DNA of 64,000 bases from Savitreella phatthalungensis. Taxonomy: Eukaryota. The notes below the pieces were generated by a model, which saw only the letters and a list, made by a program, of their open reading frames with translations, did not search any database and was not told the DNA's origin. How positions within the stretch are numbered: the first letter of the stretch is position 1; the number at the start of each line of letters is the position of its first letter. Positions 7,465 through 63,630 of this stretch are shown here, one piece after another. The stretch lies in NCBI GenBank assembly GCA_051599415.1, contig AP039708.1, positions 186,001 to 250,000 of the forward strand, in the 5' to 3' direction. The translations under genes and the position numbers were made by a program.

Positions 7465-8668
7465 GGATGGATGTATGTGAGAGAGAAAGACCTGCATAGA
7501 TCTGTAGTTGTTGATGACGGATGACTTGGACAAGACTCTGCGGACAAGACTTTGAGCTGCTACGAGAACGAGGTACTGTCGCTGAGAAAGAGTCTCCAAG
7601 CGAGTCAGACGTATCGAACAGAGTATACATTCACTGGACAATGAAGAGGGGCGAGCTGGGACTTGCGACTTGGGACGCTGATTGTGAGATACGAGGATGC
7701 GAGACGCGACAGAGAGCTCGAATCATCATCAGCAGCAGCAGCAGCAGCACCAGCAGCAGCAGCACCTCTACGCGCCAAGTCAACCTTCTGCAAACACTTT
7801 GATCATCTTATCGAGATACGCGTCACATCCAGCACGGGCGCGTCGCGTCTATCGCCCTCATTGACCCTTTGAGCGTGCAGCCCCAAGTGAATCCGATCCA
7901 GAACAACGAGCGCCAATCCTTTCACCTATTCAATCATCCAGCCAGCCAGCCGTCCTTGAACAGCAGACATCATCGTCGTCATCGATCATCATTCTTCAAA
8001 CAAGAAAATCGATATCATCGTCACTCAAAATCCATGCCCATCCATATATCCATACCCGTATCCATACTCATATGCATATATCAACTTAACAAATATACAC
8101 ACACGCACATACGCACACACACGTACACGTACACGTACACGTACATCATCCACAACCATCATCATCAATCATCCTGTACAAGTACAGCGTACTACTCCAA
8201 GAGACTCACACAGACGTCGCCTTTCTACTAGCCAAGCGGAGTCGAAAGCAGTCTGAGCGACTCTTCAGAGTGCTCTAATCGCAAACACCAAATACATACG
8301 CTATCTAGACAGTCCGCAATCAGGCGCACACCTCAGTCACTCTCTAACACACACACACACTCTCTCACACTCTCTGCTTCACTCTTCCACTTCTTCTCTC
8401 TCAATCTCGCTCTCTCACTCTCTTTCTCTGGCGCGCGCTTCCTCTCTCTTCTACCACGGCTAGATCGACTAATGTGCTAAGGACGAAACCAAGCTACATC
8501 GACCGTCAAGGGCACTAGACTACGAGCCCACAACGAGAACCTCCTCTCCCAGACCTCTCTCTGACAGAATCTTCTTTCCCGAGTCGACCGCTCCTACTTC
8601 ACTTCCACCTTTACGAATTTCCGCTCTTCTTCTCTTCTTCTTCTTCTTCTTCCTCCTCCTCCTCCTCG

Positions 8669-14686: not shown

Positions 14687-15644
14687 GACTGGTGGTCGAG
14701 GTGTCGAGCGATGGAGATGGAGGTGTCAAGAAGTGGAGGTGGAAGAGCGAGAAAGAGAGGGAGCGTGGGAGTGGAGAGAAGAGGGAGACTGGTCGGTTGG
14801 TATGGCGACAGGTGAGTGGTTGTTCTGGTCGATACAGGAGTGGGAGACCGATATGCAGGTACGGGAGGATTGAGCTGCGGTGGTGTGAGGAAGTGGATGT
14901 GCGTGTGCGCGTGAGGGAGCGTGAGGATGAGTGTGTATGTGTATGTGTGTGATGGAAGGGTTGTTGTTGTTGTATGTGTTGGTGATGGTGTTGTTGTGAT
15001 GTTCGAATGGGCATTCATGGATTAAGAAGAACCCTTAGTTAAATCCATCTTTTTCTTACTGAATTTGGTTGCCGAATTGGGTTCTGATTAGATTTCGATT
15101 TACTCTGATATGATATGATTTGATTTGATTTAATTCTGATTTGATTTGATTTGATTTTGAGTTGTCCATGTCATTTGAATTCCAGCTGAGCTCAAAGGAG
15201 GCGAATCCACGTCAGTCCAACGCATCAACTCATTCAATCACTCACTCATTCACCCATGTCAGTCACGCCACCAATCGCGCAGTCAACCACTCAATCACGA
15301 CTGTACTGATGCGCCAGTGAGTGATTCATATGGGTCGTTCTTGTGTCGCAGTCGCAGTACAGCAGCAGCAGCAATTCACTTTATGCAGATCATGCAACTG
15401 ACTTTGCACACCCGTCACTTTTCGAGAGCTTAAGATTCCGAAACCGATGTGCTGAACTTTAGCTAGCCAAGGGGAAAACCTTTGACTGAGAGAGTGCGCT
15501 TTGATCAATACACCCAATTACAAAGCGCATTAGACAATCTACTGCCAGAGTGCAGTCGAGTCTGCTGATTGAGGAAGAAAGGAAAGAGCAGGAAGCTTGG
15601 GAAGCAGAGAAGCAATGACACTTGCACCTGTTTGCGTACTATCG

Positions 15645-15845
15645 CTCACTCACTCACCCAGTCAGTCATTCAATCATTCGTTCACTCAATCATTCACTCA
15701 GTCAATCATTCGCTCAGTCAATCATTCACTCAGTCAATCATTCACTCAGTCAATCATTCACTCGGTCACTCTTTCACTCGGTCACTTGTGCATCCACTTC
15801 ATCCGCTGGCTCACACAGTCGCATCCACTTTCATTCACTCATTGC
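15645..15845. repeat. Degenerate (NTCR)n tetramer array with a 16-nt higher-order unit TCACTCAGTCAATCAT
   Basis: Directly visible: gtca gtca ttca atca ttcg ttca ctca atca ttca ctca gtca atca... Confidence 0.9.
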
Positions 15846-16569
15846 ATTTGGAGAAATGGACGAGAGTTTTGCTTCTAAGAATAGCAACACCATCATCAAT
15901 CCACAAATATCCAGAATACAGGCTGTCGCTGGCTGACTGCATCTTTTCCTTCTTCTCGTGATCATGCATCATTTCATGCATGCAATCCACAGAATGGATG
16001 GTCAGGGCTGAATATTCGAAAGATCAGAAGATGAAACTTTCGATCAATCTGAATCTGAATCTGAATTTTCAATTTTCAATTTTCAATTTTCAATTTTGAA
16101 AATATCCTGATCAGCAAATCGTTCCAGTCAGCGCTCCTGCTCGTCCTCCGTCCAGAGTCACTAGTCTCGGGTCTCCAGTCTCCAGTCTGGAGTCTGCAAT
16201 CTGGAGCCTTGGTCTCTGAGTCTCGCGCTCGGGTAAATCATCCTCCGTCATCATCTTCAGTATCATCAGCATCACCAAACACCAACACCACCACCACCAC
16301 CACTTGCATTTGTTTCGATCTGATCTCGAAGTCTCCACGCTACACGCTCTCCACCCTCCAACAGACACAGGAGTCGCCTATCTCATCCAAAAGTTTGAGA
16401 GCCCATTCGTGAGATCCGTGTGTGACACGGTACATGACACACACGTCATCCACTTGCATCACCCACTAGCTTTCGTTCCCTTCTACTTCTTCTCCTTCTT
16501 CTCCTTCTCCTCCTTTTCCGACTCCTTCCACGGCTCCGTGTCATTTCCTTCTTCATTCTCTCCTCACCA

Positions 16570-21118: not shown

Positions 21119-21228
21119 TGGTCATGGAGGGGCTCGAACCCTCAGCCTTGACGTGAACGGATTTTAAGAAATCCCAGCTAACAGGAAAAATATTAGCGTC
21201 ACGCGCTAACCAGTTGCGCCACACGACC
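21119..21228 (-). tRNA. tRNA-Ile(AAT) with 36-nt intron (21155-21190)
   Basis: Acceptor GGTCGTG/CATGACC-A, D-arm GCGC/GCGC, anticodon stem TGACG/CGTCA with CT-AAT-A, intron after position 37, T-arm GAGGG-TTCGAGC-CCCTC. T-rich terminator follows. Confidence 0.95.
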
Positions 21229-24840: not shown

Positions 24841-25668
24841 CTAGACTCGCGAATCACCGATCGGGTCCCAGTCAGTCACCAAGTACTCGTCTAAGCCGTC
24901 CAACCGTGTCATCTCCTCATCGCTCAGTGTGAAGTCAAACACTGCGATATTCTCCATGATCCGGGCCGGTTTCACACTCTTTGGGATGCAGACGTACCCA
25001 TGCTGGAGCGACCATCGGATCAGGACCTGTGCTGGTGTCTTGTTGTGTGCGAGCGCAATCTGCCCGAGAACAGGATCGTCCATCCGCTCACCCCTGGCCA
25101 ACGGACCCCAAGCCTCCAGGACGATCCCGTTCTCGCGGTTGTACTTGACCTCGTCCTCGCGCGTCATCCACGGGTGCAGATCGATCTGATTGACAGCAGG
25201 AACGACCTCACTCGTCAGCGACAACTCCTCCAGGTGTCGACGTCCCCAATTACTCACGCCAATTGAGCGAACCAATCCCTTTGCCTGGGCATCCACAAGC
25301 GCTCGCCAGCACTCTGCACGAGCGCGAGCGTCCGGGTATGGGCTGTGGAGGAGGTACAGGTCCAGGTAGTCGGTCCCGAATGCTGTCAGGGATTTCTGCA
25401 GCGCCTTGAACGTCGCATCGTACCCGCGCAGACTCATCAGCTTGCTCGTGTAGAAGACGTCCTCCCTCGGCACACCCGAACCCCGTACACCCTTCCCGCA
25501 CGCCCCCTCGTTCCCATACCACTCGGCACTGTCGATCAGCCGGTACCCAGCCTCGAGCGCAGCCCGCACACTCCGCTCGCACGCGCTGTCGCTACACTCA
25601 TACACACCGAGACCGAGCTGCGGCATGAATCTCCCATCACGCAGCCTCACCTTTGGCACTTTCGACAT
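24841..25668 (-). CDS. Aldo/keto reductase
   Basis: MPQLGLGVY, GYRLIDSA..Y, DLYLLHSP, SIGVSN, PAVNQ and IPKS motifs. Confidence 0.93.
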   Translation of the reverse strand: MSKVPKVRLRDGRFMPQLGLGVYECSDSACERSVRAALEAGYRLIDSAEWYGNEGACGKGVRGSGVPREDVFYTSKLMSLRGYDATFKALQKSLTAFGTDYLDLYLLHSPYPDARARAECWRALVDAQAKGLVRSIGVSNWGRRHLEELSLTSEVVPAVNQIDLHPWMTREDEVKYNRENGIVLEAWGPLARGERMDDPVLGQIALAHNKTPAQVLIRWSLQHGYVCIPKSVKPARIMENIAVFDFTLSDEEMTRLDGLDEYLVTDWDPIGDSRV

Positions 25669-25761: not shown

Positions 25762-26979
25762 ATGCCACCGCCCACAGAGGCCGTTCTCAGGTGGCTCCAC
25801 AACATTCTACAGCCAGAGTACGATGCGGTCCAACGGACATTTGACGACGTCGTCGACGTCCTGTTCGACCTTCCCCTCCGCCCTCGCACGGACATCTACA
25901 GTAAGAAGTGCGTCTGTCGTGCAGGAAGTGACTAACCAGCAGCACACGAGGATGGGAGAACGCAGTTGCTGCTGATGGTACACGGACCGCTGCCGGTGGC
26001 TGGGGTTGGGAGTGTGGGTGTAGAGGTCTGGCTGCCACAGACGTACCCGGTGGACGGGCCGATCGTGTTTGTCGGTCGGCCGCCTAGTGGGTGTGTGGTC
26101 CGTCCTGGGAACCACGTGGGCTCCGATCGGCGGTGTTACCACCCGGTGCTGGCGTACTGGAGCGGGGATGTGCGTCGGAGTACGCTGAGGGGGGCGCTGG
26201 ATGCGTTGGCGGGAGTGTTTGCGAAGGAGCCGCCGGTGGTGAGGGCGCCGGTGGAGGTCGAGGTGGTGAGGAGGACGAGGGAGCAGGATAGTTATGCACA
26301 CAAGCCACCACCGTCACTGCCGCCACGGCGCAAGATCGCAGACGAGGTCGCAGCGATGGAGTACGCACTACAGAGGCAGTCGATCGCGCAGGCGACAGGG
26401 ATGGCAGATGAGGGAGAAGATCTATTGGGCGACACGCCCGTCTACACAAACACGAGGGAGAACCACCCACCGGCAAGACCGGCCAACCCGGTCAGAGACA
26501 CACTCGTCGACGAACTCACTCACCAGGTCCAGGTGAGGGCGGAGCGTGCGCATGCGCAGTTCCTCGGTCAGCTGAAGGAGTTGGATAGGGAGCGCGAGGC
26601 GCTGGAGGAGGTGCGTGATAGGTTGTCTCGGGAGACGGCAACAGTGACGCGGTCATTGGAGACCTGTCGTGCTGGCATTTCGATTCTGGACGAGAAGATT
26701 CCTGCTGCAGAGAAGGTGATTGAGCAGGTGGATGCGCTAGGTCAGCCTGACGTCGATGGCTTGGTCGTCCCAGCGACCGTCGTCCACGCCCAGCTCTACA
26801 ACCTCGTCGCACAGGAGCTAGCACTCGACGACACGATCTTCGTCCTCGGCAAGGCACTCGAGCAAGAACAAATCGACCTCGACCTCTTCCTCAAACACAT
26901 CAGACCGCTCGCGAGAGAGCAATTTCTCAAACGCGCACTCATCCACAAGATCAGCGAACGTCTGGGTCTCGCGCTGTGA
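25762..26979 (+). CDS. VPS23: ESCRT-I subunit Vps23/Tsg101; intron 25901-25939 or 25901-25942
   Basis: Exon 1 ends RPRTDIY. Intron GTAAGA..GACTAAC..CAGCAG. UEV domain (WLP..YP, YHP.L..W, FAKEPP), coiled coil and steadiness box (FLKH.R.LAREQF). Confidence 0.9.
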
Positions 26980-27012: not shown

Positions 27013-27558
27013 TCACACCTGGTGGTACTCCTTGATGTGGAAGCGGGTGGTGGCGTGCTTTGCGTTGACAAAGATCCAGGATTGGAGGTTATTGGCGACC
27101 ACTTTGGTGGGTCTGCCTGTGGTATTGGTGGTGTGATCTGTCGGTTCCGGGGTGACTGCCACGAGGGCGCCGTCGTCTGCTTTCCGGAGGTGTGGGGCGA
27201 AGACGTACGGGAGGAGGAGGCAGAGGGCGCCGTTGTCGGAAGCAGACGCGGCCGTAAAGCAGAGCACGTGGACGTAGCTGTATCCCTTTTCGAAAGGATA
27301 CACCGTCTCAGGAGACACCATCACCTGGGTCACTCGCCCAAAATCCATACCACTGTCGACCTCCATTCGATTACTGATATCCCCAGCACGCAGCACATCC
27401 CGACCATCAGCACGCGTCTCAAGCACCACCCCACAGTTCTTGACTGGCAAGGGGATCGCTTTTGCTCCAGCATCGGCCAACCGACGACGTTCATTCTCTA
27501 CCTGCTGGGCAAGCCACGCCTTTGAGTCGGACTCGTGGTCAGATTTGGCTTCCGACAT
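27013..27558 (-). CDS. Hypothetical protein, 181 aa
   Basis: ATG-initiated ORF with globular composition and coding-like GC; convergent with VPS23. No family recognised. Confidence 0.65.
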   Translation of the reverse strand: MSEAKSDHESDSKAWLAQQVENERRRLADAGAKAIPLPVKNCGVVLETRADGRDVLRAGDISNRMEVDSGMDFGRVTQVMVSPETVYPFEKGYSYVHVLCFTAASASDNGALCLLLPYVFAPHLRKADDGALVAVTPEPTDHTTNTTGRPTKVVANNLQSWIFVNAKHATTRFHIKEYHQV

Positions 27559-28835
27559 GGCCAGGGTAAATCAAGCGAGCCAATCCTTGACGGAGATGCG
27601 GATTGGGGTTCTCCTAGCTGTGTCACAAGATAAAGAAGATGGTAGATTGAAGAATGCAATAAACTGGGGAATCCTTTTGGAGATTCTTTCTGGAGCAATG
27701 CAACGCGATGCTCTTTGGCGTCCAGGCCAGACCCTCAAAAGCAAGCGCGTTGATTGGGAACGAGGTTCTGGCGCGAGGAGGTGAGACTGGTGGCAGAGAC
27801 GGTTGGCTGTCTGTGCCTGTCTGCTACTTGGGGTGGATGCTAATCTGACCGGGAGAGCTTTTGTTTTGGTCCTGAAACTTTGTCCTGTCACATCCACGCG
27901 TGAGGGGGGCTTCAACGATGAGGAGAGCGTTCCTGGAAGGGAAAGAGAAGGGAAGGAAAGGGAATTGAGTTGGTTGTTGGAGCCGCTGTGTTGCCCGGTC
28001 AGGTTGAGGTAACTGTGGAAGATGGCGTGGAGGTGAACCGCCGCTTGAAATACGTACTCACCTGTTTGTTTGTTCATTCATTCATTCATTCGATGGAATC
28101 AGTCTCCCAGTAACTCACATTCATTCATTCATTCATTAATTTATTGATATATATGGCATTGATTACTTCGACTATACTGGCTGTGTAGATAGATACTAGC
28201 TGTGGATGAATCTCTGTTGATTTATTTACCCGGAGCCTCCACTCACTCAACCATGTACTTCTACACTGGTCAGATTCAATTTCAACTATAATGATATGAT
28301 CTTTGTACTCCCTCACACAAGCACAAGCACTTAAGCACAAGCAATTTAAAGGCAGAAAATGGATTTGAATACAGTGACAATATTCATTATTCATTTGGTA
28401 GCATATATATTTATGCTTGTGCAACCGTAGCACGAATCATCCATCAACCAGTCACGCAATAAAGTCCTTCTATCAATCTCTAGATCACCTTCAGTCCATT
28501 GAATGGTCAAGATCAGAAATTCATTATAAACAACTAAGTACTCAATCGATATATATACCCTTGTACCACCTCCAGGTCTCATGCATCTATAAGAAGTCAT
28601 ATTCTAGACCTTTCATATTGTGTGAGGGTCAAAATATAAATTATTCGAAATTTCCTATAAGATCTTTCTATTGGCTTTTGATCTGTGCGCATGCGTGCGT
28701 ACGTGCGTGGGTCGCTTAATTCTTTTGTTTACCAATCTGACCAAGGCCAACCTCCCAAAACATCCATAAAGGTTCATTCCTTGAGTCTAATAACCTTTTC
28801 TGGAGATGATTACCATCCTCTCCCTCCTGCTGCTA

Positions 28836-29214
28836 CTGCTGCTGCTGCTCTTTGTCGTGCCTCTAGAGCGTGCTAATCACCCGAATGTGAGTATAGCGAA
28901 GCCGTAGGAGCTCCTCTTCTTCTACGGCCCTCGGTCACTCCCAAACGGCCGCCAAATTCCCCGAAAGGGACACAACGTAGGCTTGATCCCCTAATCGAGC
29001 TCGGGGCTGGGGCTCGATCGGCGGCCGTCCGAGCGCCATGCCATGCTCATCCTCATACTCAAGCCTAAAGCCCATGCACATGCACATACTCACCCACGCT
29101 TGCAGTCCCCTTTGGGTCCACGCTCACAATCCACGCTTACCGGTGTACAAGCTCACACGTACAAGTGCAGGTGCAGGCAGAGGCGCAGACGTAGGACAAA
29201 AGCGGCAGCGGCAG
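28836..29214 (+). ncRNA. Candidate structured RNA (enclosing helix, multi-hairpin core, pseudoknot); family unknown
   Basis: Hand-read pairings: 28836-28864/29179-29214, 28866-28872/29119-29125, 28901-28910/28919-28928, 28945-28953/29020-29028, 28994-29002/29010-29018, and pseudoknot 28978-28986/29059-29067. G-U pairs favour the + strand. Expression is not shown. Confidence 0.55.
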
Positions 29215-29524
29215 GTGACTGCGTGACACTGCTCATGTGAGGATCGTTTCCATGCCTCACACACTTCCATACATAACCAAGACAGACCCCTCTACGGGAC
29301 TCATCACACCAAAAGGTCCGGCATCCGGCGCCCCGCCCAACAGCATTGCATCCTCCGACAATAGCATCATTCGCATAACCAGCATTATACCGCGCTGCAC
29401 CGGACGGTATCACATCACATCACCTCACTCCGCATTAGACGCAGCGTCGTCTAGCGTTCCTCTGTCATCCGCGCATCTCTCGACCACAGCATGAGCGTCA
29501 GCTACTCATAGATTCGGAGTCCTC

Positions 29525-30211
29525 ATGCCGCCCACAATCTCCTCGCCAACCGATTTCCGTCACGTCTCGCACAACCTGGTAGATGCCATCATGCTGGCAA
29601 GCGCCGGCACAGGAGCAGGAACAGATTCCCTGAGCCTTGCTGTAGCTCCTGCCCCCGTTCCTGCTCCTCCTCCAAACGAGCAACCAATAAAACAGTCCTC
29701 CGGCAAGCGGAATCGGAGGTCCATCTGGCGACTATTCGCTCCTGGCAGGAAGCCACGGAAACAGGAGCCAGAATCCGACGGATCGACCATCTCTGAATCT
29801 GACGCACGCGCATGCCACGACGACGGCAAGTGGGACACCTGTAGCCTGTCAACAGCCGCAAGCCGATCGACCGTGGATCTGACGACGCCGATTCGACCAC
29901 CGCTGCGTCACGGCCGGAGTGCAATGACCATCAGATCGGAGAGCGCTTCCCCGAATTGCTTGAGCCTGTCGAGTTCCAGCTCGACTTCCTCGTCCTCGTC
30001 ACCGTCTCCAGCATCCGTCAACAAACCCACATCGTTCTACCTGCAACACGGCAGGCAGGTCCACTCGACCACCGTCCTCGTGGGCCGGGAGCGTCTTGCA
30101 GGTCGCCACCTGCGGGAGACGGCAGGACGAATTTCCGCCGTGTGGCTCGGAACAGCCGGGGAGACCCGACCTGCTGGACACCTCGCGACCATGCCACTAC
30201 CCCTCCCTTGA
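29525..30211 (+). CDS. Small CRIB/PBD-motif protein (putative Cdc42/Rac effector)
   Basis: N-terminal ISSPTDFRHVSH fits the CRIB consensus I-S-x-P-x(2-4)-F-x-H-x-x-H. The rest is low-complexity. Confidence 0.65.
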   Translation: MPPTISSPTDFRHVSHNLVDAIMLASAGTGAGTDSLSLAVAPAPVPAPPPNEQPIKQSSGKRNRRSIWRLFAPGRKPRKQEPESDGSTISESDARACHDDGKWDTCSLSTAASRSTVDLTTPIRPPLRHGRSAMTIRSESASPNCLSLSSSSSTSSSSSPSPASVNKPTSFYLQHGRQVHSTTVLVGRERLAGRHLRETAGRISAVWLGTAGETRPAGHLATMPLPLP

Positions 30212-30572
30212 CGACCTGAACGCAAACCCCTTTCTCTCACATACATAACGTACATACAAACATACACCGCATACACGCAACCAATTCTCTACTTAACTTT
30301 GACTCTCCATACACACTGAGCCAAGCCACCGGAATTGACCTGCTCATCGATACACTATCTCATACATTCGTGACTTGGCTCGTGTCCATGTGTCGGCCTT
30401 TGGTCGCGTGCCATCCGACCTCATATAAGTCGGACGTTTCCGCCATCCAGCTCGCTTACGATCATCGACCTCCATAGCCAGCGTGACGCCTTTAGGTCCT
30501 TTGCCCCGTCCCATCCCTAGACCTCTCCTTTCCCAAAGATAACACGCAGACGCCACCACAGCAAAGAAGATC

Positions 30573-32023
30573 ATGGTGCCGATACTCCAGCTGCTGGCAA
30601 CGGCACTCGCAAGTCTGCTGCCGCTGTCGCTGCACGCATCCGTGTCGACGCCACTCGGGGACATCCGTGCTGATGTAGACATCTCGGGTGACAAGGTTCC
30701 AGCCGGGTTGACTCTGGAGTTTGCGACGATGGAGGTCGATCGTGGAAGTGTGCCTGTCCACTCGATCCTGCTCGAGACCGCCAGCAGGCAGACGGCCAAA
30801 AAGAACCTGACCCTGCCAATCGCCAACGACGGCAAGGATATCGTCTACTTCATCCAGTTCGGCGTCGGTACGCCACCACAGTCGATGACGGCAGTCATCG
30901 ACACGGGTTCACACATTTTCTGGCTGCCGGGAAAGGCGTGCAAGGACGCGGCATGTATGAAACACACAACGTTCGATCCCTCAAAATCATCAACCTTCGT
31001 ACCAGACAACACCACCTGGGACATCACCTACGCAGCAGGCCAATCCTCAGGCACCGTCGGTCACGACGTCCTTCAGCTAGGCTCGGGCTCGACGGGCGCC
31101 AAGAAGGCGACCTTCGGTGTGGCCGATCACGTGGATGACAGTTTTGCTGCACTCGCGTCAGACGCAGTGATTGGGTTGTCTCCAAGGCAGGACTCACAGA
31201 TCGGGCTCACCTTCCTAGAGGGACTCCGGCAAGCAGGCTCGATCGAGAAGCTCATCTTCGGACTCGACATGGAGCGCGGGGTCGACTACGGCACCCAGGG
31301 AGGCCGGATCTCGTTCGGAGGCGTAGACAAGGCGAACGACAGGCCAGACACCTGGGCACTCATGTACAACCGGGAGTTCTGGAAGGGAGACAAGGCGCTG
31401 TGGGTGGTGGCGGCAGGGATGGTGACTGTGGATGGTGGGGCGATCTTGAAGAACTCCGAGATCGCAGACGACACAGAGACATACACAGCACTCATCGATA
31501 CAGGAACCACCATGATCTACCTCCCGCAGGAAGCAGCAGTCAGGTTTCATGCTTCAATCAGGGGAGCCGTCTACGACACAGACCTACAGACCTTCATCGT
31601 ACCCTGCAACCTCTCAACACAAGTCAGAGTCTGGATCGGCCATACACCAATCGCGATCGATCCTAGGGATATCATTCTTGCACCCAGGTCGAAATCCAGG
31701 AATGAGTGCTATTCGTCCGTCGGCAGCACGAGCGGCATGGGGGTGAGTGAATCACACAGGCGATTTGAGAGTGTTGATGCACAGATGACTGACATGGGGA
31801 AAAATTTAGTTGGGAGAGTACGAGATGCTTCTAGGCGCAGCGTTCATCAAGAACGTTCACATCTTCTTCGACGTGAGTCTTCGCGTCCAGTCAATCAAAG
31901 GGGCCAAAATGATACTGACATTTGCATTAGTTGGAGGCACAGCAGGTTGGTCTGGCGAGCAAGATCGAAGTCACAGACACCAAGTGGACTGGAGGTCACG
32001 GGAACAAATTCGACGAGCGATAG
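30573..32023 (+). CDS. Secreted pepsin-like (A1) aspartic protease; introns 31743-31809 and 31873-31930
   Basis: Signal peptide and both catalytic motifs (IDTGS, IDTGT). Two GTGAGT..ACTGAC..TAG introns restore LLGAAFIKNVHIFFD-LEAQQVGLA; stop at 32023. Confidence 0.9.
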
Positions 32024-32368
32024 TCAAGGATATAGAAGGGGGTTTGTAACAGGGGGTTTAGTCAAATTGACAGATTGCCACCTCGGGTGTCGTCGTAGGG
32101 GCACATAGCTGGAGTAACCGAGTGGGACGGAGGAGTCTGGCTATATGTATGCTCTAAGAGCGAAAGTCGCTGGCCACCTGCGCAGTGACGCGGTTTTCCA
32201 GATTTGGTTCCGTGGCCCAATGGTCAAGGCGTCCGACTACGAGACTGCTTCTGAAAATTGAAGCACTCGATATCGGGAGATTGCGTGTTCGAGTCATGCC
32301 GGAATCGACCTTTCTTTTTAATATTTTTATTCTTCATCTTTATCTATCCGGCAACGTGCAGACAGAGC

Positions 32369-32529
32369 AAGACTCGCTCGGTGTCATCATGATCGTCGTC
32401 AGTCGTCAAGGTCACCTACACTTGAATGTGTTACTATTTAGAGAGAAAAAAGACTCGCTCGGTGTCATCATGATCGTCGTCAGTCGTCAAAGTCACCTCG
32501 ACTTTGCATGTGTTACTATTTTGAGAGAG
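32369..32529. repeat. Imperfect tandem duplication, 81-nt period, two copies
   Basis: aagactcgctcggtgtcatcatgatcgtcgtcagtcgtcaa(g/a)gtcacct...atgtgttactattt occurs at 32369 and 32450. Confidence 0.9.
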
Positions 32530-34493
32530 AGATTGCGGAATGAACGATATCTGTTAAGGACGATCGGTCTTTTGAAGCAAGAGTCAGTGGTGAAGTGTGG
32601 TTGATGATCCGCTGCGTCTTAATTCACCCGATTGATCTAGCCGCAGATCAACTCTGACGTGACCTGGCTCATTCTCAGTTGACGTCTAATTCGATGATGT
32701 CGCTGATGACGTGCAGGCGTGCAAGCGCGTTCATTCGATCTCCCTGTCATGTCTGGTGACTGACCCCTTGCCGGAAGACGGATGCGCAGTCTGCCCTTCT
32801 GTCTCGCCCGAATGGATCGACTAGATCTTCCATGACGGAGCGTGCGTAACTCCTGGATCGAATTTCCCTTCGATCATTCTGGGCGATGATTGAGCTTTCG
32901 AATCCATTCAGCGTTCACAAAAGGGGTTGTTACTGAGCGGGAGTTTGGGAGACGTGCGCCTCTGTTGACATATACGCCAACCTAGGTAGAAATTCAAATA
33001 GGCGCATTCGTCTCCGATAGATTGCATTCTAATGAGTTTCAAAAGTTTGACCCTTGCTAGAGCCAATTTGTATGGTTGCCATGGACGCTTCTCCTGGAAT
33101 GATTGGCAGGTTTCGGGTATTTGTGGCTCATCTATCTGGGTCAGGCTGATCTATTTCTGAACCAGCCTCCTGCATAGAGTAATCACCAGGGTCACGTCAC
33201 TTTCGAAGTAAGTATACCCTCGAATTGGCCTACGATAGAGCCAAATTTCGAACTTGCTCTTGCTTTTGCGCTTTGCTTGGCGGGAGGCGAAGCATACATT
33301 CCTCCGATGTGAGTGGAGAGGTCACGCACCTACCCACCCCGTCAAGTAATTTACCCAGCGGGCAAACCTTCAGAGATAGCTCAGCAAGCATAGGTCAAAG
33401 TGGTTTCCGAGCGGGTAACAATTGACTCCTTCACTCCTGATTGTTTCAGGTATGTGCATGGGTCGGGCATTTCAGCGATGCAGGCTCACCCACATGGAAA
33501 TTCAGGAGTAGAATGACCTGGGCCCAGTCAGAACGCGAAATGACCTGAATGGGTTCTCAATCTGGCCGAAACAGAAAGGAGTCAACGTTGATGCGCAGCT
33601 ACGTAAGACTCACACACCATATACAGAAAGGGTCAAACTCTTAAAGACTGGAGACGGTGAAGAAGAGATAAAAATAAAAGACAATGAGGGAGAAGTGAAC
33701 CCAAAGGGGAATCAAAGGAATGGACAAGCCTCTGGAGATGGGAAGATTACTTTTCTTCTTCTGCTTCTTCTTCTTCTTCCTTTCAATGACTATGGAGAAG
33801 AGAAAGGAAAGGAAAATAGTCCGAGTGCAGCAGTGAATGTAAACAGATCAACGCCTAGGCTAGCTTCGACCCGCATGACATACAGACCACGCGCTCATCC
33901 ACGCATCCATGCACGCATCCACGCAGGCAGGTAAGCAAGCGAAAGGGAAAAAATAGAAACCTTAGGCTGTAGGCACGATAGTCTGGTTCAATCTCAGGTG
34001 CAATCTATTCCATTCTATTGTAATCTCTTGCGTTGCCTTGCAGGTCATCCAAACGATTCCTCTCATTCAGTCAATCACTCACTCACTCGCTCACGAGGTC
34101 ACTTACACATACTCACGTACACACTCACTCCAAGGGTTACATCCTAGCCCTTCGTCGCATCACCTCCCCATCACCATCAACATCACCATCGATACACATC
34201 CTCACATCCTCACATCCACGCACACGCCTACACTCCCATCCAACCACAACATCCTCTCATACACACTCTCGCTCGCTCACATACATCCAGCGCAACAACA
34301 ATCACCAACTCGAAAGAACTCTCCTGATAGACACGTCACAGACTTATCACAAGCGATAGAAGCGATTTACTCTCACTTAGTCACTCTCTAATCACAAAAA
34401 AGTCGCTCTCTCGAAGCATACCACCCTCTCCTCTCCTCTCTCTCCTCTCCCGCCTTCTTTCGACGCTTCATCCTCTGCTCATACCACACCAGA

Positions 34494-37778: not shown

Positions 37779-38813
37779 TCAGAGTGCGAGCGATAGCTTG
37801 CTCGAGAGGGTGTCAATCGGCTCGGGCGTTGAGCGACGAAGGAGGCCGAGTTCGAGCACCGAGCGAGCCTTTCTACGTCGACGAGCTGCAAAGTTGATCA
37901 GGTCATCCACGTGTGAGGACTGTGCGGCTGCAGCGACGAGCTCGTCCACAGGAGGTGGTCCACGCGGCTGTCTTTGCGGATGACCATCCTTCGGCGGCGT
38001 GCTCGTCCGGAGAGCAAATGACGAGCCAACGCTGCTAGCGACAGACGCCTGCGACCCCTGCTTCTCCATCGGTGCAAACGATATCGATGGCTTTCTCCTC
38101 CGATCCGTGGAATCTGGTGTCGCGAGACCCGTGGAACTAGCAACACGGGAGCCGTGCTTCGATGTGGACGTGGGCGTTTTGACGGACGCAGATGCGGATG
38201 CGGCGTACATCATCTGCTGCTGCAACTGCCAGTGGAGCACCTGCTCCTGCGTGGCCTGGCTGAATGTGGGGACGCCGGACGCGTCGTAGGTCGCCTGCAC
38301 GTACCTACAGGAGTTTGTGTCATAGAAGAGCTGCGTATTTTGCGTATTCACGATCGTGGTCGAGATCGGACTCGCCTCGGGAGTGTAAGGAGGTGTACCC
38401 ATTGACGCGTACATCTGAGCGCTGTGTTGCTGCTGCTGCTGCTGCTGGTGCTGCATCAACATCTGCTGCTTCGCCAACAGCATGTTCTGCATGATCAGTT
38501 GCTGCTTCTGCTGCTCGAGTGCAGCAATGTCGGCCACAGACGGCGTCCGTGCATGCGTGCGCGACGTGCTCCGCTGCTGACGTGCTCCGCCAGCGGCAGG
38601 CGCGTCCCCAGGCACAAAGTTGGATGTCCTTGGTGTGGTTCGAATCCGATCAAGCAGCTGTGAGCGTGGTGACTTGACTTCCTCGCCAGGTGCCGCTCCC
38701 GCAGCTTTCACATTCAGGTGTGCGGGGATAGCGGCGAGAGCCTCTGCAGGCTTCAGCTGGACTGATCCTCGTGAGAGACCGCGCGAATGAGTGCGCCTGC
38801 GCGTGTCTGTCAT
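37779..38813 (-). CDS. Gln/Ser-rich protein with C-terminal RQPRGPP..EL...NFA.RRR motif
   Basis: Long ORF with polyQ. The C-terminal motif resembles conserved uncharacterised fungal proteins as I recall them. Confidence 0.7.
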   Translation of the reverse strand: MTDTRRRTHSRGLSRGSVQLKPAEALAAIPAHLNVKAAGAAPGEEVKSPRSQLLDRIRTTPRTSNFVPGDAPAAGGARQQRSTSRTHARTPSVADIAALEQQKQQLIMQNMLLAKQQMLMQHQQQQQQQHSAQMYASMGTPPYTPEASPISTTIVNTQNTQLFYDTNSCRYVQATYDASGVPTFSQATQEQVLHWQLQQQMMYAASASASVKTPTSTSKHGSRVASSTGLATPDSTDRRRKPSISFAPMEKQGSQASVASSVGSSFALRTSTPPKDGHPQRQPRGPPPVDELVAAAAQSSHVDDLINFAARRRRKARSVLELGLLRRSTPEPIDTLSSKLSLAL

Positions 38814-39220
38814 GGTTCTAAAGGAAAGTGTGGATACTAGAGAGTGAAGGGAGGGCGCCTGCCGCCAAAGAGCAGGTGTCTTGCTCTCGTGTTGACCTGT
38901 GCTCTTGTTTCGTGTCACGCCTCTGTGTCTCTCCCAAGCCAGGGGGTCATTCTCGAACTCCTACGGTAGCTATAGCTACTATAAATAACACCAATCCGTC
39001 CAAACTCTGGATGCATGCACGCAATTGAAGAAATCGAAGTCCAAATTCCTCTCACCACTCACTTCTTCCCCTCACTCTCACTGTCACTCAGATATCGACC
39101 GACCCGAGCACGATACACATGCAGCCACAGTCTGGACTGACATAATAGAATCGATCGTAAATCAAATGGTCATTGTCTCTCTGGCTATTCGTCTCTCTTG
39201 CTATTCGTCTCGGCTGTATA

Positions 39221-40414
39221 TTATCCTCGTGGAGTGTTTGCGCCTGATTGGGCTGCTTGTTGTTGATGATGTTGTTGTTGTTGTTGCTGCTGCTGCTGCT
39301 GCTGCTTTTTCTTTGTAAGTTTTGCATAGTGTAGACCGCATGCGTTGCACAAGGTCCGGGCGCCGTCTGGACCACGACGCCATTCGGGTGTCTCACTGAT
39401 GTTGCAGGAGTGGCAGCGACCCGGTGCTGCTTGACGGCTGATCTTGTGGTCATTACTGCCGACACTGGGCACCTGCGACTGGTGAGGTGCGATTGAAGGT
39501 GGCGTCGCATGGGAGGGATATCCCGAGATTGAGGAAGCTCGCGGGAGTGGCGGCAGATGCGTCGGCGGAGGCGGTGCGTGGGTCGAGTAGCTCGCAGCTG
39601 GCGACCTCGCCGGTCCCGGAAATGGCGGCACCGTCACCGACGGTGTCGAGTTCGCACTTGTCCGCACGATGGGCTCGTGCGAGTAGCTGCCATAATGTGC
39701 AGGTGTTATCGACTTGAGCCTTCGCGGGTCGTCGAGATCGTACGGACGAGCCATGGGAGCGGGAGTTCGTGCCTGCACACGGTTCGGCGGTTCGTAGTCA
39801 CGCCAGCTCTCCAGCAGCCGCAACAATTGACGGGCATCCCCGATTGCAACATCAAACTCCGAGACCTCAGGGAATCGCACCGGATAAGGTCCTGTGGTAA
39901 CGGTCGCGAGGCTTTCTGTGCCGCGACCTGGCGCCGCCCGAGCTGCGAAGTGGTACAGCTTGGAGGAGATGTCTGCAGCGTTCTCCATGTCGCGCCTGAA
40001 AGCATTCGCTCTAAGAGCCTCCTGCACAGATGACGCAGAGTCGTGGTTGCTCATGCTGGTGGCCGTCGTGCTGCTGGTGCTGCCAGTGGAAGTGAGGTGC
40101 TTCAGCGGTGGAGCAGGTGGATGATGTTGTCCATGCGCATAAGGGTACGATTGATGATGCTGGGCTGCGTGGGAATGGTGATGTGCGGGTGAGTGGTTAT
40201 CTGAGAAATGGTCGAGCTTCTGTCTCGTGTTGGAAACCAGGACAGGCGACGGACTACGACGACTGAAGATCGAGGGCAAAGGCGGCAACTGTCTTCCCGT
40301 CCTTAGCCCTGTCGAGCTCGTGTCCTTGAGCTCGCCAATGGAATTGCGCTTCTGGGGCAAGTAAGACATTGCTGCGTCTGCAAGCTCGCTCAGGCCAGGA
40401 TTGACCGTCTGCAT
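39221..40414 (-). CDS. GATA zinc-finger transcription factor (NsdD/Brg1-like)
   Basis: CHSCNISETPEWRRGPDGARTLCNACGL (C-x2-C-x18-C-x2-C) and a polyQ tail. Start uncertain; an upstream exon is possible. Confidence 0.88.
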   Translation of the reverse strand: MQTVNPGLSELADAAMSYLPQKRNSIGELKDTSSTGLRTGRQLPPLPSIFSRRSPSPVLVSNTRQKLDHFSDNHSPAHHHSHAAQHHQSYPYAHGQHHPPAPPLKHLTSTGSTSSTTATSMSNHDSASSVQEALRANAFRRDMENAADISSKLYHFAARAAPGRGTESLATVTTGPYPVRFPEVSEFDVAIGDARQLLRLLESWRDYEPPNRVQARTPAPMARPYDLDDPRRLKSITPAHYGSYSHEPIVRTSANSTPSVTVPPFPGPARSPAASYSTHAPPPPTHLPPLPRASSISGYPSHATPPSIAPHQSQVPSVGSNDHKISRQAAPGRCHSCNISETPEWRRGPDGARTLCNACGLHYAKLTKKKQQQQQQQQQQQHHQQQAAQSGANTPRG

Positions 40415-42880
40415 GTGAAGCGAATGAACGGGACTTTTAGTCTCTTCTGGGGAAGCCCCTGACTGTCGCGCAGGTACACGGCGCACGACCTGATTGTACT
40501 ACTAAGCGTGTCGCAAATTGACAATGACTTGCGCGCACGGGGTAGTCGCGTTTGAGAGTAAGCCGGCCTGGCTAATTGTTTCGTAAAAGCAGGTGTCGGC
40601 ACAATTAAGAAAGAGGTATGAGAGGAAGCGCTTTACGTGCGTGTCGCAGCAAAGAGTGTTTGAAGAGTTGTCCTGATGAGATGAGATGTCTGGAATTGGT
40701 GAGGTGACAAGAGATGTGGTAACGATGGACTTTCTACAATCTTCTCTGGCTTGAGTGCATCCACCGGAAGGATGAGGCAGCGATGCTTGGTTTGACGTGC
40801 AGCAAACACAGAGCGGCGAGCAAGAAAGGGAATTGGAGGCCCAATGCAGCCTTCACTCAGTAGCGTCCAGCGGGACTCAGGGTCACAAGCAGGTCGGAAA
40901 ACTGTTGTGAGCAGCTCGGTTAGGTAACGGGAGGTCTGTGTGGAATTGAGGGAGCGCTCTTCCTCTCCTTGTCACTAATGTGCCTGCAATCTGGCTGTCA
41001 GTCGATCTGTCGCGACTGATTGACCTTTCACTGACGGAGTGACTGCTGTGTTGTCGGTCGAGTGAGCTGCAGCTGTAGCTACTCTTGCAGCACTCGCTGT
41101 AGAGCTAGCGCTAGATTAATTGCCGTTGTCTAGATTGCTGGGCTGACCGCGGACTGAAGCACAGTGCAGTACAGGATAGTATACAATACAGCAGACGGAT
41201 GACGGGCGTGTGTTGTGTGCTGTCTGAGCTTTTAGTCAATCGATCGGAAGGAGGGAAAGGAGGAAGGTGGGTTTGGATGCTGTGGGTGAATCTGATCTGA
41301 TCTATGACTCGTCCATTGACTATTTTACCCTTGATCGACGATGCTCTGACAAGGGTCAATCTGATGATTTCAGATTTCAACATTTTACAGGTTAAATTTC
41401 AGACTCCAGATTAATGAGTGCTGACTATGACCAGCACAATACACCAGATTGTCAGACTACTCCCGGCTACAGGACTGACTGTCAGACAATCTTTTTCGAA
41501 GAAGAAATTCTCCCTCGCGTCTTCACTTAGTCACTATGGATAGAGCTCTTGCCATGAGTTGTCTCGATCTCTTCGCTCTACGTCGCTGCAAGAATCCCTG
41601 TTGTCTCCTATATTCAATCGGCCTGATCTCTGTGGCTCAAGATCGAGATGAGAGTGATGAAGAGCGATTGAACGAGTACGAAGATAGTGAGCGATGATGG
41701 TACGTCAGAGGATGTATAGCCAAACACCGTGTAAATCAATTTGGCCGCAAAAGTGTTGAGCGAGAAGCTCTTGTGGAGTTCAGATCTCGATCGTCCAGAT
41801 TAACATAAGTTGCACCTTTGAGTTCAGTCTATTTGTTGGCAATCCAGCACGGGTCAAACAGTCGAAGATTCGATCGACACGCGTCTGATTCAATCTTCTC
41901 GCCAACGCATCGTGCAAAAGCCATTCTGATCAATCGCATGCCTTTGGGATGGCCAGTGATCGCCGTCGACCACCCTGAGATCCAGGTATCGCTCATCCTG
42001 AGACAACCCAACAGCTCATTCAACTCGTGCCATCTCGATCGATGGGCCAGATCCCTCCGGATCACTCAACGAGGGGCTTCCATCTAACCTATCGCAGATC
42101 TATTAAATCGATCGACGTCCTTACACCTGACGCAGATCCATCTAGCCTGGCTTTCATAATCGACAAAAATATAGTGACTTACTGAAATCTTGTATGTAAG
42201 AGATTGAAACAATTGACTTTCGTCCCAGCCCGGGCTCGGACCCAAATTCGCACCCGATTTGAAGCACCGCGGTCACGGCCAGGTCTAAATTTCCCTCGGG
42301 AGTGGGGTGTCAGCTTTTGACCCACCTCAGGTCCCTTATGCGTCATTGACAGGCGCCTCCCGCATAAGTAAGCAGAAAGGAGCTTGAATTGATTTCTATC
42401 TCCTTCAATCACGAGTGACCCGAGATAGAAGAGCGTCGTGGATCGACCCCGAATTCGACATGCAACCATTGCTGTGGTGCCTGTGGTTTCTGACCACACT
42501 AATTTCACATCAGCTTTCTCGCAAGGATATTCCACATTCGCGGACAAACACCTTAAAAAAGCCCGGAGCAATCAAAAAGGTCGAATCGAATGTCTGAGCG
42601 TCTCTGCCAGTCCTGTCTCGGTGCGGGTCTCATCTAGGGTACATTGTTTGTTGAATCGCCATGCGGGCTAGCTAGCCAAAGGTGAGAGGACGCGGCATGG
42701 ACCGCATGAACGGGTGGATCCATTGTGTGAATGGATGGCAATGCAAAGAAATATGTGAGACAGCTCGGGTGAGTCGCGTGAAATGATTCACACTGCTCAT
42801 GATGCACATACCCACCACCAGACGCAAAAGTCTGCGTAGAACGGTACAAGACTCTCGTGAAGCGGACCGGGCTGGTCCGG

Positions 42881-60781: not shown

Positions 60782-63367
60782 TCAGGACGCGAGGGAGCCA
60801 GAGCCCAGTTTGCGGACAATTTTGCGCGAGCCTTCTCCGGCGACGCGGACACCGCCCTCGGCTTCGAGCATCCGCAATACCTCAGTCAGCTCTTGCGGGT
60901 CGACCGTTCGGGATGACTGCTCCTGCATGAGCCTGGCGAGGTCGATGACGCGTAGTCCTTGTGGGGAGGAAGCTGCCGCGGAAGACTCGACGATGCGGGC
61001 GATCTCGCGCCGGAGATCTTGGCGTGCACGCCGCTGTGCGGCCGATGCGCCGACTTGTATCAGATCGAGGTCGATTTTACCCGTCCGCTTGTCAGTAGCG
61101 TACTCCTTGACGGCCGCCTTGACGAGTCGGACGGCCTCGAGCACGTCGTCGAGCTCGACCTCGTCAGCGAGACGCATTTTGGCGTGTGCTTCCGATAGTC
61201 GGATGAGCGACTCGAGCTGACGAGTCGTCGCGGTGATGCGACGCTCGCTCGCTCGAGGGTCCTCACCGAGCTTACGCATTGCCACGTATGCCGCAACGAG
61301 CTCCTTGCCAGCCTCCTCCCCGATCACCGGCCGGCACTCTGTACGCGCATAAGAAATGTAGCTCGTAAGCATGTCCACAGGAAGAGTTTCACCGGCGTTC
61401 GCGGCAGAATGCGACCGGTCCTCCAGATACATGCCAACAAGGTGACGAGCGAGCCGACGATCCGCGTTCTCGTCCACCCTGTCGAGCACGAGATAGACGA
61501 GGTCGAAACGGGAGAGCAGGGTTGGTGGCAAATCGATGTTTTGAGGTACAGGCAGCTCCGGATCGTACCTTGATCCGATCGGGTTGGCGGATGCGAGGAT
61601 GGACGTCCTGGCATTCAAGGTGGTAATAATGCCGGCCTTTGCGACCGACACGGTCTGCTGCTCCATGACTTCGTGCAAGACCGACCGCGTCGCCTCGGAC
61701 ATCTTGTCGAATTCGTCGATGCAGCAGACGCCACCGTCCGAGAGCACGAGCGCGCCAGATTCGAGCACCAGCTGCTTTGTGTCGACGTCCCGAGTCACGT
61801 AGGCCGTCAGTCCGACAGCGGAAGAACCCTTGCCGGACGTGTAGACTCCGCGCGGAGCAATCTTGTTGACATACTGAAGGATTTGTGATTTCGCTGTGGA
61901 GGGGTCGCCGCAAAGGAGAACGTTGATGTCACCGCGGTAACGTGGTGCGGCGCCGCTCGTGAAGGTCTTGTTCGTGCCGCCGAAGAGCTGAAGGAGGACG
62001 CCCTTCTTGACATCGTCAGACTCGAAAATTGAAGGGGCGAGCGACCGGGCCAGGAGCTCGTAGCAGTCAGGCCGGGCGCCAATCGCCCGTACTCGTGCGA
62101 CCTCGTCCTCCGAAAGCTTGCGCACCTCCTCCGTCGTGTCACTCTGCATGATCTCGTCTGCCAGCGTGGTAACGTCCTGGCCGAGACGCCGGCGGTCGAC
62201 CTTGGCGACGTGGACGACGTCGACGTAGGTTTTGAACAGGGTCTTGACGGCACGCATTCGCGGATTCAGCCGGACGGGCACGCTTCGGAAGATACCGGTG
62301 ACCTCGACGCGGTCACCTGCTTTGCAAACGTCGACAATCTCATCGTACGCGCACAGCGAGACAGAGTGCGGAGTCTGACCATCCGGAATTGCGTCGGGCG
62401 TCTCCTGCAGCTTGACAATCTGCTTGTCGCTGAACTCCGAGCGGTTGTGAATGAGAGTCATGGACTCTCTCTGCTCGCACGCTCGTCGCGGGCACTTCGT
62501 TGGCTCCATGATGCGTCCGCGGTCGATCTCGACCGTGATGCTGTGATTACAGACGGAGCAGGTGAAGAAGGCAATTTTCATGTCCGGGATGATCGGTGTC
62601 GTACGAATGACGAGGCCCTTGACGCAGACGAGCTTGTCGATGTCTCCAGGATTCAGATCGCGCATGTTCAAGGAAGTGCCGAGGTTGAAGGGACGAATTT
62701 TGTAGATTGCTCGCTCGACCTCGCCGACCTCCTCGGCTGTTCCATTCGCGTCTACGGCCATATCGATGAGCACGTCTTTCAAGGTCTGATCGAAGATAGG
62801 GATGATCTCCTGAGGGTAGCGTAGCAATTGACCATGCAGCTTCCGTGTAAGAGGGTAGGCCTGCATGTCTCGTACATCCAGATTCATGTTGGTCAGGCCA
62901 AGTATACGCATTGCCTCGAGCTTCTGCACGTACGGCGTTTCCTCGCCGGTGGTTCCGACAGGCTGACCGTCCATCAGCGACCGGTACTTGCGCTTGAATG
63001 ATGTGAGGAAAGTGCGGAAAGAAGCCATGCTCTCTGCGATCGAGACGTTTGTGCCCCAGATGACCCTCACACCGTCCTCGGGCTCAGTCCTGTCGCTCGG
63101 CACATTCTGGGAGAGGGGCAAATCTGATGGCACAGTACGCCTCGGGGTCGATGCGTTCACATCGCCACGTCTGCCTGAAGGAGTGCCCGTATTGCGCAGG
63201 GACAAATCACTTTTCAATGAGCTTGAATTGTAGCGAAGCGGACTGGATGAACGAATCCCTCGCGTGCCAGAAGCCCTTGGCGTTGCATCCAGATCTCTTG
63301 TTATACGTTCTGACCGTTCTGATGAAGGAAAGAACAGCGGTGAAGCTGGTCTTGCTGGTGAAGACAT
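60782..63367 (-). CDS. MCM4: DNA replication licensing factor Mcm4 (Cdc21)
   Basis: IWGTNVS, YPQEII, Zn finger, KLQETPD..P.GQTPH, Walker A GDPSTAKSQ, IDEFDKM and SRFD arginine finger. Confidence 0.97.
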   Translation of the reverse strand: MSSPARPASPLFFPSSERSERITRDLDATPRASGTRGIRSSSPLRYNSSSLKSDLSLRNTGTPSGRRGDVNASTPRRTVPSDLPLSQNVPSDRTEPEDGVRVIWGTNVSIAESMASFRTFLTSFKRKYRSLMDGQPVGTTGEETPYVQKLEAMRILGLTNMNLDVRDMQAYPLTRKLHGQLLRYPQEIIPIFDQTLKDVLIDMAVDANGTAEEVGEVERAIYKIRPFNLGTSLNMRDLNPGDIDKLVCVKGLVIRTTPIIPDMKIAFFTCSVCNHSITVEIDRGRIMEPTKCPRRACEQRESMTLIHNRSEFSDKQIVKLQETPDAIPDGQTPHSVSLCAYDEIVDVCKAGDRVEVTGIFRSVPVRLNPRMRAVKTLFKTYVDVVHVAKVDRRRLGQDVTTLADEIMQSDTTEEVRKLSEDEVARVRAIGARPDCYELLARSLAPSIFESDDVKKGVLLQLFGGTNKTFTSGAAPRYRGDINVLLCGDPSTAKSQILQYVNKIAPRGVYTSGKGSSAVGLTAYVTRDVDTKQLVLESGALVLSDGGVCCIDEFDKMSEATRSVLHEVMEQQTVSVAKAGIITTLNARTSILASANPIGSRYDPELPVPQNIDLPPTLLSRFDLVYLVLDRVDENADRRLARHLVGMYLEDRSHSAANAGETLPVDMLTSYISYARTECRPVIGEEAGKELVAAYVAMRKLGEDPRASERRITATTRQLESLIRLSEAHAKMRLADEVELDDVLEAVRLVKAAVKEYATDKRTGKIDLDLIQVGASAAQRRARQDLRREIARIVESSAAASSPQGLRVIDLARLMQEQSSRTVDPQELTEVLRMLEAEGGVRVAGEGSRKIVRKLGSGSLAS

Positions 63368-63435
63368 TCTTCTCGATCGAGTAGATCGGAATGAGTGCCT
63401 TGGATGATGTGATGTGAAGAATGGGTCGTCAGTTG

Positions 63436-63508
63436 CGCGTCTTTGGATGGATGTACGAATTAGCAGGCGCGTACTGACACTAAATTCGTGCAACGATTAA
63501 ATTCGCGT
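63436..63508 (-). promoter_or_regulatory. Three MCB-like ACGCG cores upstream of MCM4
   Basis: CGCGT at 63436, 63468 and 63504, upstream of a replication gene. Confidence 0.4.
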
Positions 63509-63630
63509 CACTCAAGATTGATCGATCGATCGATTGATTGATTGATTGATTGATCAGGGCAGAACACACTGGTGACAGTCTATAGTATGTCAGAGTGACA
63601 GGGTCGGCGGTCTTAGTCAAAGGACATGGC

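Follow-up and report, generated by a model that had tools for sequence, protein, structure and literature searches.

A strongly folding non-coding stretch upstream of a lineage-restricted gene in Savitreella phatthalungensis: dedicated RNA or incidental pairing?

A stretch of 379 nt between two diverging genes of Savitreella phatthalungensis can be drawn as a closed, multi-helix fold with a pseudoknot, and an earlier note had proposed that it is either a novel non-coding RNA or a structured leader of the gene downstream. Does the fold of this locus mark a functional RNA, or is it what non-coding DNA of this genome happens to be able to form? We addressed the question within the window (the whole 64-kb stretch of DNA that was analysed), and the answer that we favour, a little likelier right than wrong in our estimation, is non-coding upstream or leader DNA whose structure is incidental; a functional role as a structured leader or a new ncRNA, the two taken jointly, appears possible but doubtful.

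The candidate fold and its ensemble

The structure drawn in the earlier note is accurate on paper. Its motif strings were recovered at their positions in 22 of 22 cases by a string check, and a pair-by-pair check returned standard pairs throughout; the enclosing helix, put at about 28 bp, counts 14+6+8 = 28 bp including 3 G-U pairs (Table 1). Inside it lie the GAGCGTG/CACGCTC helix, a TCAC/GTGA hairpin of 4 bp, the 10-bp hairpin and a junction closed by 5+9 bp, namely the CTCGG/CCGAG helix (5 bp) and the perfect, GC-rich 9-bp helix ACGGCCGCC/GGCGGCCGT (28945-28953/29020-29028). The junction in turn holds a TCCC/GGGA hairpin of 4 bp and, at 28994-29018, a hairpin of 9 bp with 1 G-U pair. The two strands put forward as a pseudoknot do form a perfect 9-bp pair (28978-28986/29059-29067) that crosses the junction helix.

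Table 1. Coordinates of the candidate fold and of neighbouring features in the window.
Feature	Position	Strand	Evidence or remark
Candidate fold, whole (379 nt)	28836..29214	+	MFE -151.4 kcal/mol, z -4.83/-5.07
Enclosing helix, 5' arm	28836..28864	+	pairs checked
Enclosing helix, 3' arm	29179..29214	+	ends in GCGGCA-type short repeat
GAGCGTG/CACGCTC helix, 7 bp	28866..28872 with 29119-29125	+	mean pair probability 0.56
10-bp hairpin (1 G-U), best-defined local element	28901..28928	+	mean pair probability 0.996
Junction region	28945..29028	+	contains hairpins 28958-28970 and 28994-29018
Crossing helix, 5' strand	28978..28986	+	pair probability 0.93 in nested ensemble
Crossing helix, 3' partner	29059..29067	+	pair check
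AT-rich island, 33-41% GC, TATA-like runs near 28551 and 28635	28100..28799	.	composition
GC-rich (53-67%), C-skewed continuous block	28800..30199	+	composition
Downstream ORF, 228 aa, lineage-restricted, disordered-looking, CRIB-like N-terminal motif	29525..30211	+	one distant homologue
tRNA gene, 110 nt, with intron	21119-21228	-	Rfam
tRNA gene, 102 nt, with intron	32206-32307	+	Rfam

Whether the 28978/29067 pair amounts to a pseudoknot depends on the junction helix: it is a pseudoknot where that helix is formed and an ordinary nested helix where it is not, and the nested minimum uses the latter arrangement. In the nested ensemble the junction helix has a pair probability of only 0.03, owing to its competition with the 28978/29067 helix, and enforcing it costs 0.4 kcal/mol (-151.0 against the minimum of -151.4 kcal/mol), the two 9-bp helices being mutually exclusive when nested. 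A rough pseudoknot-aware sum that admits both gives -153 to -159 kcal/mol, no worse than the nested -151.4, and on this model a pseudoknot joining the two helices would be energetically feasible. As the ensemble is split between two exclusive, isoenergetic helices and the MFE structure has a frequency of 0.0001, the fold is poorly defined.

The sequence from which these helices are built is partly repetitive. A (CTG)n microsatellite at 28827-28849 (period 3, 7.7 copies) supplies the first 14 nt of the 5' arm, while the 14 bp of the outer helix beyond the CTG repeat are non-repeat sequence and the inner 9-10-bp stems all lie in non-repetitive sequence. Short direct repeats are also present within the element. 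Elsewhere in the window, CTG/CAG runs occur at ~7730-7764, 38425-38452 and 39279-39316.

Fold strength against shuffled sequence and against the window

Measured against shuffled sequence, the element on the + strand is as stable as the earlier proposal implied: -151.4 against -125.6 +/- 5.3 kcal/mol (z -4.83, with 0 of 100 shuffles as good), and z -5.07 with a second shuffle set. RNALfold places a local optimum on the + strand at 28836-29215 with z -4.89. Removal of the outer helix (leaving 28865-29178) lets z fall to -2.31, and the 260-nt core (28866-29125) gives -3.76 by shuffles and -4.55 in the local-fold scan; the occurrence of two perfect stems of at least 9 bp has a shuffle P of 0.018 for the full element and 0.009 for its inner part. 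Real structured RNAs have z-scores in the same range, and fold statistics therefore cannot exclude function.

The direction of a putative transcript is a separate matter. That the wobble pairs favour the + strand is true of the outer duplex alone (-44.6 vs -33.2 kcal/mol) and does not extend to the whole element, for which the MFE is -151.4 on the + and -154.6 kcal/mol on the - strand; the proposed structure has five G-U pairs in total. The z-scores do differ between strands (-4.8 on +, -1.2 on -), because shuffles of the G-rich minus strand fold ~22 kcal/mol better (shuffled means about -125 vs -147 kcal/mol). As this asymmetry comes from the shuffled baseline, it is weak evidence for a + strand RNA.

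A different picture emerges when the window itself serves as the reference, and the statement that nothing elsewhere is so densely paired has to be withdrawn. In an RNALfold z-scan (span 400, both strands, 64 kb) six other loci surpass the element's z of -4.89, so that it stands 7th among the clustered loci, and 17 loci reach z of -4.5 or lower. For 12 of the 24 best loci at least 98% of the locus lies within probable coding ORFs (e.g., 25062-25140 and 26012-26302), and among the long non-coding loci the best two (8035-8360 and 63307-63566) are both microsatellite-rich. The former is, on the - strand, the best long non-coding fold of the window (326 nt, z -5.86); short repeats of the units GT, GTGTAC and GATGAT make up most of it, and its Rfam matches are weak and below threshold. 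The latter (+ strand, z -5.83) includes a (GATC)n/(GATT)n run and lies for ~73% inside a probable coding ORF.

An exhaustive search for long-range duplexes, seeded on at least 10 pairs and with 100-650 nt between the two arms, ranks the enclosing duplex (-45.9 kcal/mol by the common measure) 16th among the clustered duplexes, and at least eight other regions hold stronger ones, up to -66.1 kcal/mol. Random arm pairs attained the -44.6 kcal/mol of the outer duplex in 0 of 60,000 draws (best -42.6), a sample of only about a thousandth of all arm pairs that could be drawn. As for the inner stems, 5.0% of 637 genomic windows of 379 nt contain two or more perfect 9-bp stems, and 14-19% of them match the element in their number of stems of at least 7-8 bp. 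With MFE regressed on dinucleotide content, the composition-corrected energy of the element (-2.93 SD) is the most negative of 996 fixed-frame window-strands, a rank on which we do not rely, since the element's window alone was framed on its own helix. The element is thus more than chance when held against shuffles, and not clearly more than chance when held against its own genome; because its fold statistics fall within the tail that coding and microsatellite-rich sequences reach, the functional claim of the earlier note is lowered.

Genomic setting and the downstream gene

The surroundings of the element are sharply partitioned by composition. The AT-rich island, 700 nt long and sharply bounded in a genome of ~58% GC, separates two genes that diverge from it and is likely to act as their shared promoter region; a promoter, an origin-like island and the remnant of a decayed mobile element are all conceivable identities for it. 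The GC-rich block opens at the element and continues unbroken to the stop of ORF 29525-30211, and would on that account form one transcription unit. Between 28836 and 29524 there are 8 ATGs where 7.2 +/- 2.5 are expected by chance, and hence no depletion of the kind expected in a scanned leader. By eye, a TATA-like run is seen near 29385, ~140 nt before the ATG of ORF 29525-30211, a spacing that resembles (again by eye) the one upstream of the protease gene at 30573; accordingly, the transcription start may lie downstream of the element.

Further afield, the 3 kb of 27571-30542 contain no ORF whose codon usage resembles that of coding sequence, and they form one of four such gaps of at least 1.5 kb in the window (the others being 14726-16437, 32109-34391 and 38290-42880), and a 168-aa ORF at 27571-28077 on the - strand has no coding signal. 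The window is fungal nuclear DNA, and its genes, besides the two intron-bearing tRNA genes, include those for an aldo-keto reductase (24841-25668), a Vps23/UEV protein and a eukaryotic aspartyl protease. The product of the upstream gene (27013-27558, - strand) shares 36% identity with a protein of Saitoella coloradoensis, and the aldo-keto reductase has its nearest named relatives in Protomyces and Taphrina at 56-57% identity, its best relative being the protein P0003 at 65%.

ORF 29525-30211 has a codon score of -0.008, against ~+0.25 for sure genes, and a word-indexed protein search with it returned only itself. A full HMMER scan, however, found one relative, P0125 (E 1.6e-5), with the N-termini aligning 4 to 5 and conserved blocks at both ends, and this alignment argues that the ORF is a real gene with its start at 29525. 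A scan of metagenome contigs with a protein pattern derived from the alignment of the ORF with P0125 matched 80 stretches, of which tblastn confirmed 0. Both P0125 and P0003 are reported with a longest contig of 14,237 nt, which suggests that they are probably on one contig and that gene order would be conserved in that relative.

The designation of this ORF as a "CRIB-protein gene" stands in so far as it is a real gene with a CRIB-like N-terminal motif; the profile score and the homologue do not bear out the rest. The CRIB core has the consensus I-S-x-P-x-x-F-x-H-x-x-H, and both of its histidines are in the ORF, whereas P0125 has C and N at these positions. The Pfam profile PF00786 (PBD) scores 13.9 bits (E 0.07) and 15.8 bits (E 0.018) on the ORF, below the cut-off of 21.3, and its match covers 12 residues, profile positions 2-13 of 59. 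Judged from sequence, the name "CRIB protein" is not secured.

Known families and competing explanations

Membership of a known RNA family had been doubted from the beginning, and rightly so: with Rfam 15 at gathering score only the two tRNAs were found in the whole window, and nothing in the element. At E<=10, on 28300-29700 and 28780-29330, the element gave no match except noise on the - strand to the snoRNA-like Afu_513 (11.3 bits against a cut-off of 48). The absence of an Rfam match and a fold better than shuffled sequence are two points on which the earlier note could have been refuted and was upheld. On the Rfam results, which also cover self-cleaving ribozymes and group I/II introns, we rejected SRP, snRNA, snoRNA, riboswitch and ribozyme readings. 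RNase P/MRP RNA is similar in outline: at ~300-400 nt it too has hairpins and a multi-helix junction within terminal and inner helices, together with a long-range helix that crosses them. Its P4 pseudoknot forms between two conserved strands, CR-I and CR-V, on either side of the specificity domain; the element differs from this topology in that the 5' strand of its crossing helix sits inside the junction and not before it. RNase P/MRP was rejected since no covariance model matched even at E<=10 and a CR-I-type motif is absent: a degenerate 12-nt consensus was not found in 28241-30148 even when 1 mismatch was allowed.

Other identities were set aside in the same way. No snoRNA model exceeds 11.3 bits, and a box C/D or H/ACA snoRNA, which would show C and D boxes beside a terminal stem or H and ACA boxes behind hairpins, was rejected; inspection by eye finds a C-box-like run with one mismatch near 28804 and no CUGA ahead of the 3' arm at 29296-29317. 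Telomerase RNA was rejected by eye (a single CCCTAA-like unit near 28988, no 1.5-repeat template), as was a tRNA-derived SINE (a B-box-like run with three mismatches to the consensus). A repeat family or solo LTR was rejected because no second copy beyond CTG runs exists within the 64-kb window. The exact 24-nt junction core had 0 matches in metagenome contigs, and no publication on such an element was among the matches listed for Saitoella RNA-seq and Taphrinomycotina ncRNA, although one may still be in print. Conserved structured RNAs have been described in the UTRs, introns and intergenic regions of fungi (Gao, Jones and Rivas 2021; PMC8216456). In the available portion of that article, 17 fungal structures are defined by covariation over 61-922 sequences, with tabulated sizes of 48-170, and it is on covariation that the accepted UTR and intergenic structures rest; none is assigned there to Taphrinomycotina relatives. 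The element resembles the structures presented in that portion in being non-coding, beside a fungal protein gene, folded around a multi-stem junction and without an Rfam family, and differs from them in its 379 nt and in being known from a single sequence.

How, then, should the stretch be read? Were it functional, the most plausible form would be a structured cis-acting 5' leader of the mRNA of ORF 29525-30211, transcribed from ~28800 at the edge of the island, in which the multi-helix domain and the upstream AUGs set or regulate the translation of a small Cdc42/Rac-motif-like protein. The unbroken, C-skewed GC-rich block from 28800 to the ORF stop, the TATA-like runs 170-280 nt upstream, the reality of the ORF with its start fixed at 29525 by the homologue and the fold z of about -4.9 all speak for it. 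Long, structured, uAUG-rich 5' leaders can repress translation, and the 690-nt GC-rich stretch here, with its 8 AUGs and very stable fold, would be alike in these respects. Such a leader of 690 nt would nevertheless carry its 8 AUGs at chance density, unlike a leader selected for scanning, the TATA-like run near 29385 may put the start site downstream of the element, and the fold statistics lie within the background tail, so that we consider this role unlikely. A stand-alone, lineage-specific ncRNA of ~380 nt with closing helix, three-way junction and pseudoknot, made by RNA polymerase II from the AT-rich island, is more doubtful again, to the point of being improbable. The local-fold scan closes the structure exactly at 28836-29215, the pseudoknot is feasible, no frame has coding signal and no confident gene occupies the 3-kb gap around the locus, which is among the four of at least 1.5 kb; against this stand the lack of any kind of Rfam match, of a second copy in the window, of a run of at least 4 T after the element (the polymerase III terminator) and of an obvious 3'-end signal, besides a poorly defined ensemble and statistics that are common to coding and repeat sequences. 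A broader proposal would see in the stretch a pseudoknotted RNA domain of ~380 nt, peculiar to the lineage of a deep-branching fungus near Saitoella, Taphrina and Protomyces, and serving either as ncRNA or as a regulatory leader that controls the small Cdc42/Rac-motif-like protein. Such a domain would combine a closing helix with a three-way junction and a crossing helix of 9 bp and would have no Rfam relative; we regard this as quite unlikely.

Two explanations dispense with RNA structure altogether. The inverted repeats could act, or have arisen, at the level of DNA, as a foldback or MITE-like element or as a cluster of palindromic binding sites: both 9-bp stems are perfect Watson-Crick, GC-rich and have CGGCCG cores, CGG/CCG triplets are bound by zinc-cluster factors, the ends form an imperfect 28-bp inverted repeat and the position is promoter-proximal. 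Yet by eye there is no target-site duplication at the ends, no other copy is found within 64 kb, and five of the pairs are G-U and would be mismatches in DNA, all of which leaves this explanation very improbable. Finally, part of the stretch might be coding. ORF 28806-28907 opens with MITILS, after which the CTG repeat encodes a run of leucines, and GTGAGT stands at 28887, right after codon 27; the ORF may be due to chance, or may serve as a uORF or as a signal-peptide-like exon. That it is the signal-peptide-like first exon of an unannotated gene draws on the frame, the CTG-coded leucines and this canonical-looking 5' splice site, and seems to us hardly credible: coding signal is absent from every frame of the element and stops occur in all of them, the downstream frames are equally without coding signal (ORFs at 29038-29240 score -0.09 to -0.19), and joining to the acceptor-like CAG at 29489 would, by eye, be out of frame with ORF 29525.

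On the reading that we prefer, the 379-nt stretch would be non-coding DNA that opens the GC-rich block leading into ORF 29525-30211, either at the distal 5' end of a long leader or as promoter-proximal DNA. Its pairing, real on paper, is most likely incidental: a (CTG)n microsatellite opposite a GC(N)GCA-type repeat would have seeded the outer helix, stems of 9-10 bp like the inner ones would appear at the rate that the genome's own sequences reach, and there would be no need to assume a dedicated RNA gene. If transcribed together with the ORF, a fold of -150 kcal/mol and eight upstream AUGs would be expected to hinder scanning ribosomes. The likeness to microsatellite-derived or foldback intergenic DNA lies in the outer helix, which begins in (CTG)n facing a GC-rich short repeat, and in the internal short direct repeats, and other top-ranking folds of the window share this character; the difference is that half of this helix and all inner 9-10-bp stems are non-repetitive. 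The pairs, their z-scores and background rates, the lack of a family match and the composition block are observed; both the transcription in this preferred reading and the absence of selection on the structure are what we infer.

If functional, the element would add a new, large structured RNA from a lineage of fungi that has been sampled poorly, and would also count among the few eukaryotic leaders with a pseudoknotted domain. As matters stand it offers a calibration point, as this GC-rich, microsatellite-rich genome gives a z of about -5, a closing helix of 28 bp and a pair of perfect 9-bp stems at background rates; features of the fold alone cannot carry the claim of an RNA gene, for which transcription or covariation is needed.

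Other strongly paired loci in the window are of separate interest. The segment 10740-11420 contains a cluster of strong long-range complementarities, up to -66.1 kcal/mol between ~10786 and 11275, which suggests inverted or internally repeated sequence. A fold of 398 nt (z -4.58) surrounds the tRNA gene at 21119-21228. Within ORF 29525-30211 itself, at 29603-29675, a hairpin built on AGGAGCAGGAAC/GTTCCTGCTCCT, a perfect inverted repeat of 12 bp, reaches z -5.36 on the - strand, better than the candidate element, with miRNA-like noise matches of 19-21 bits in Rfam.
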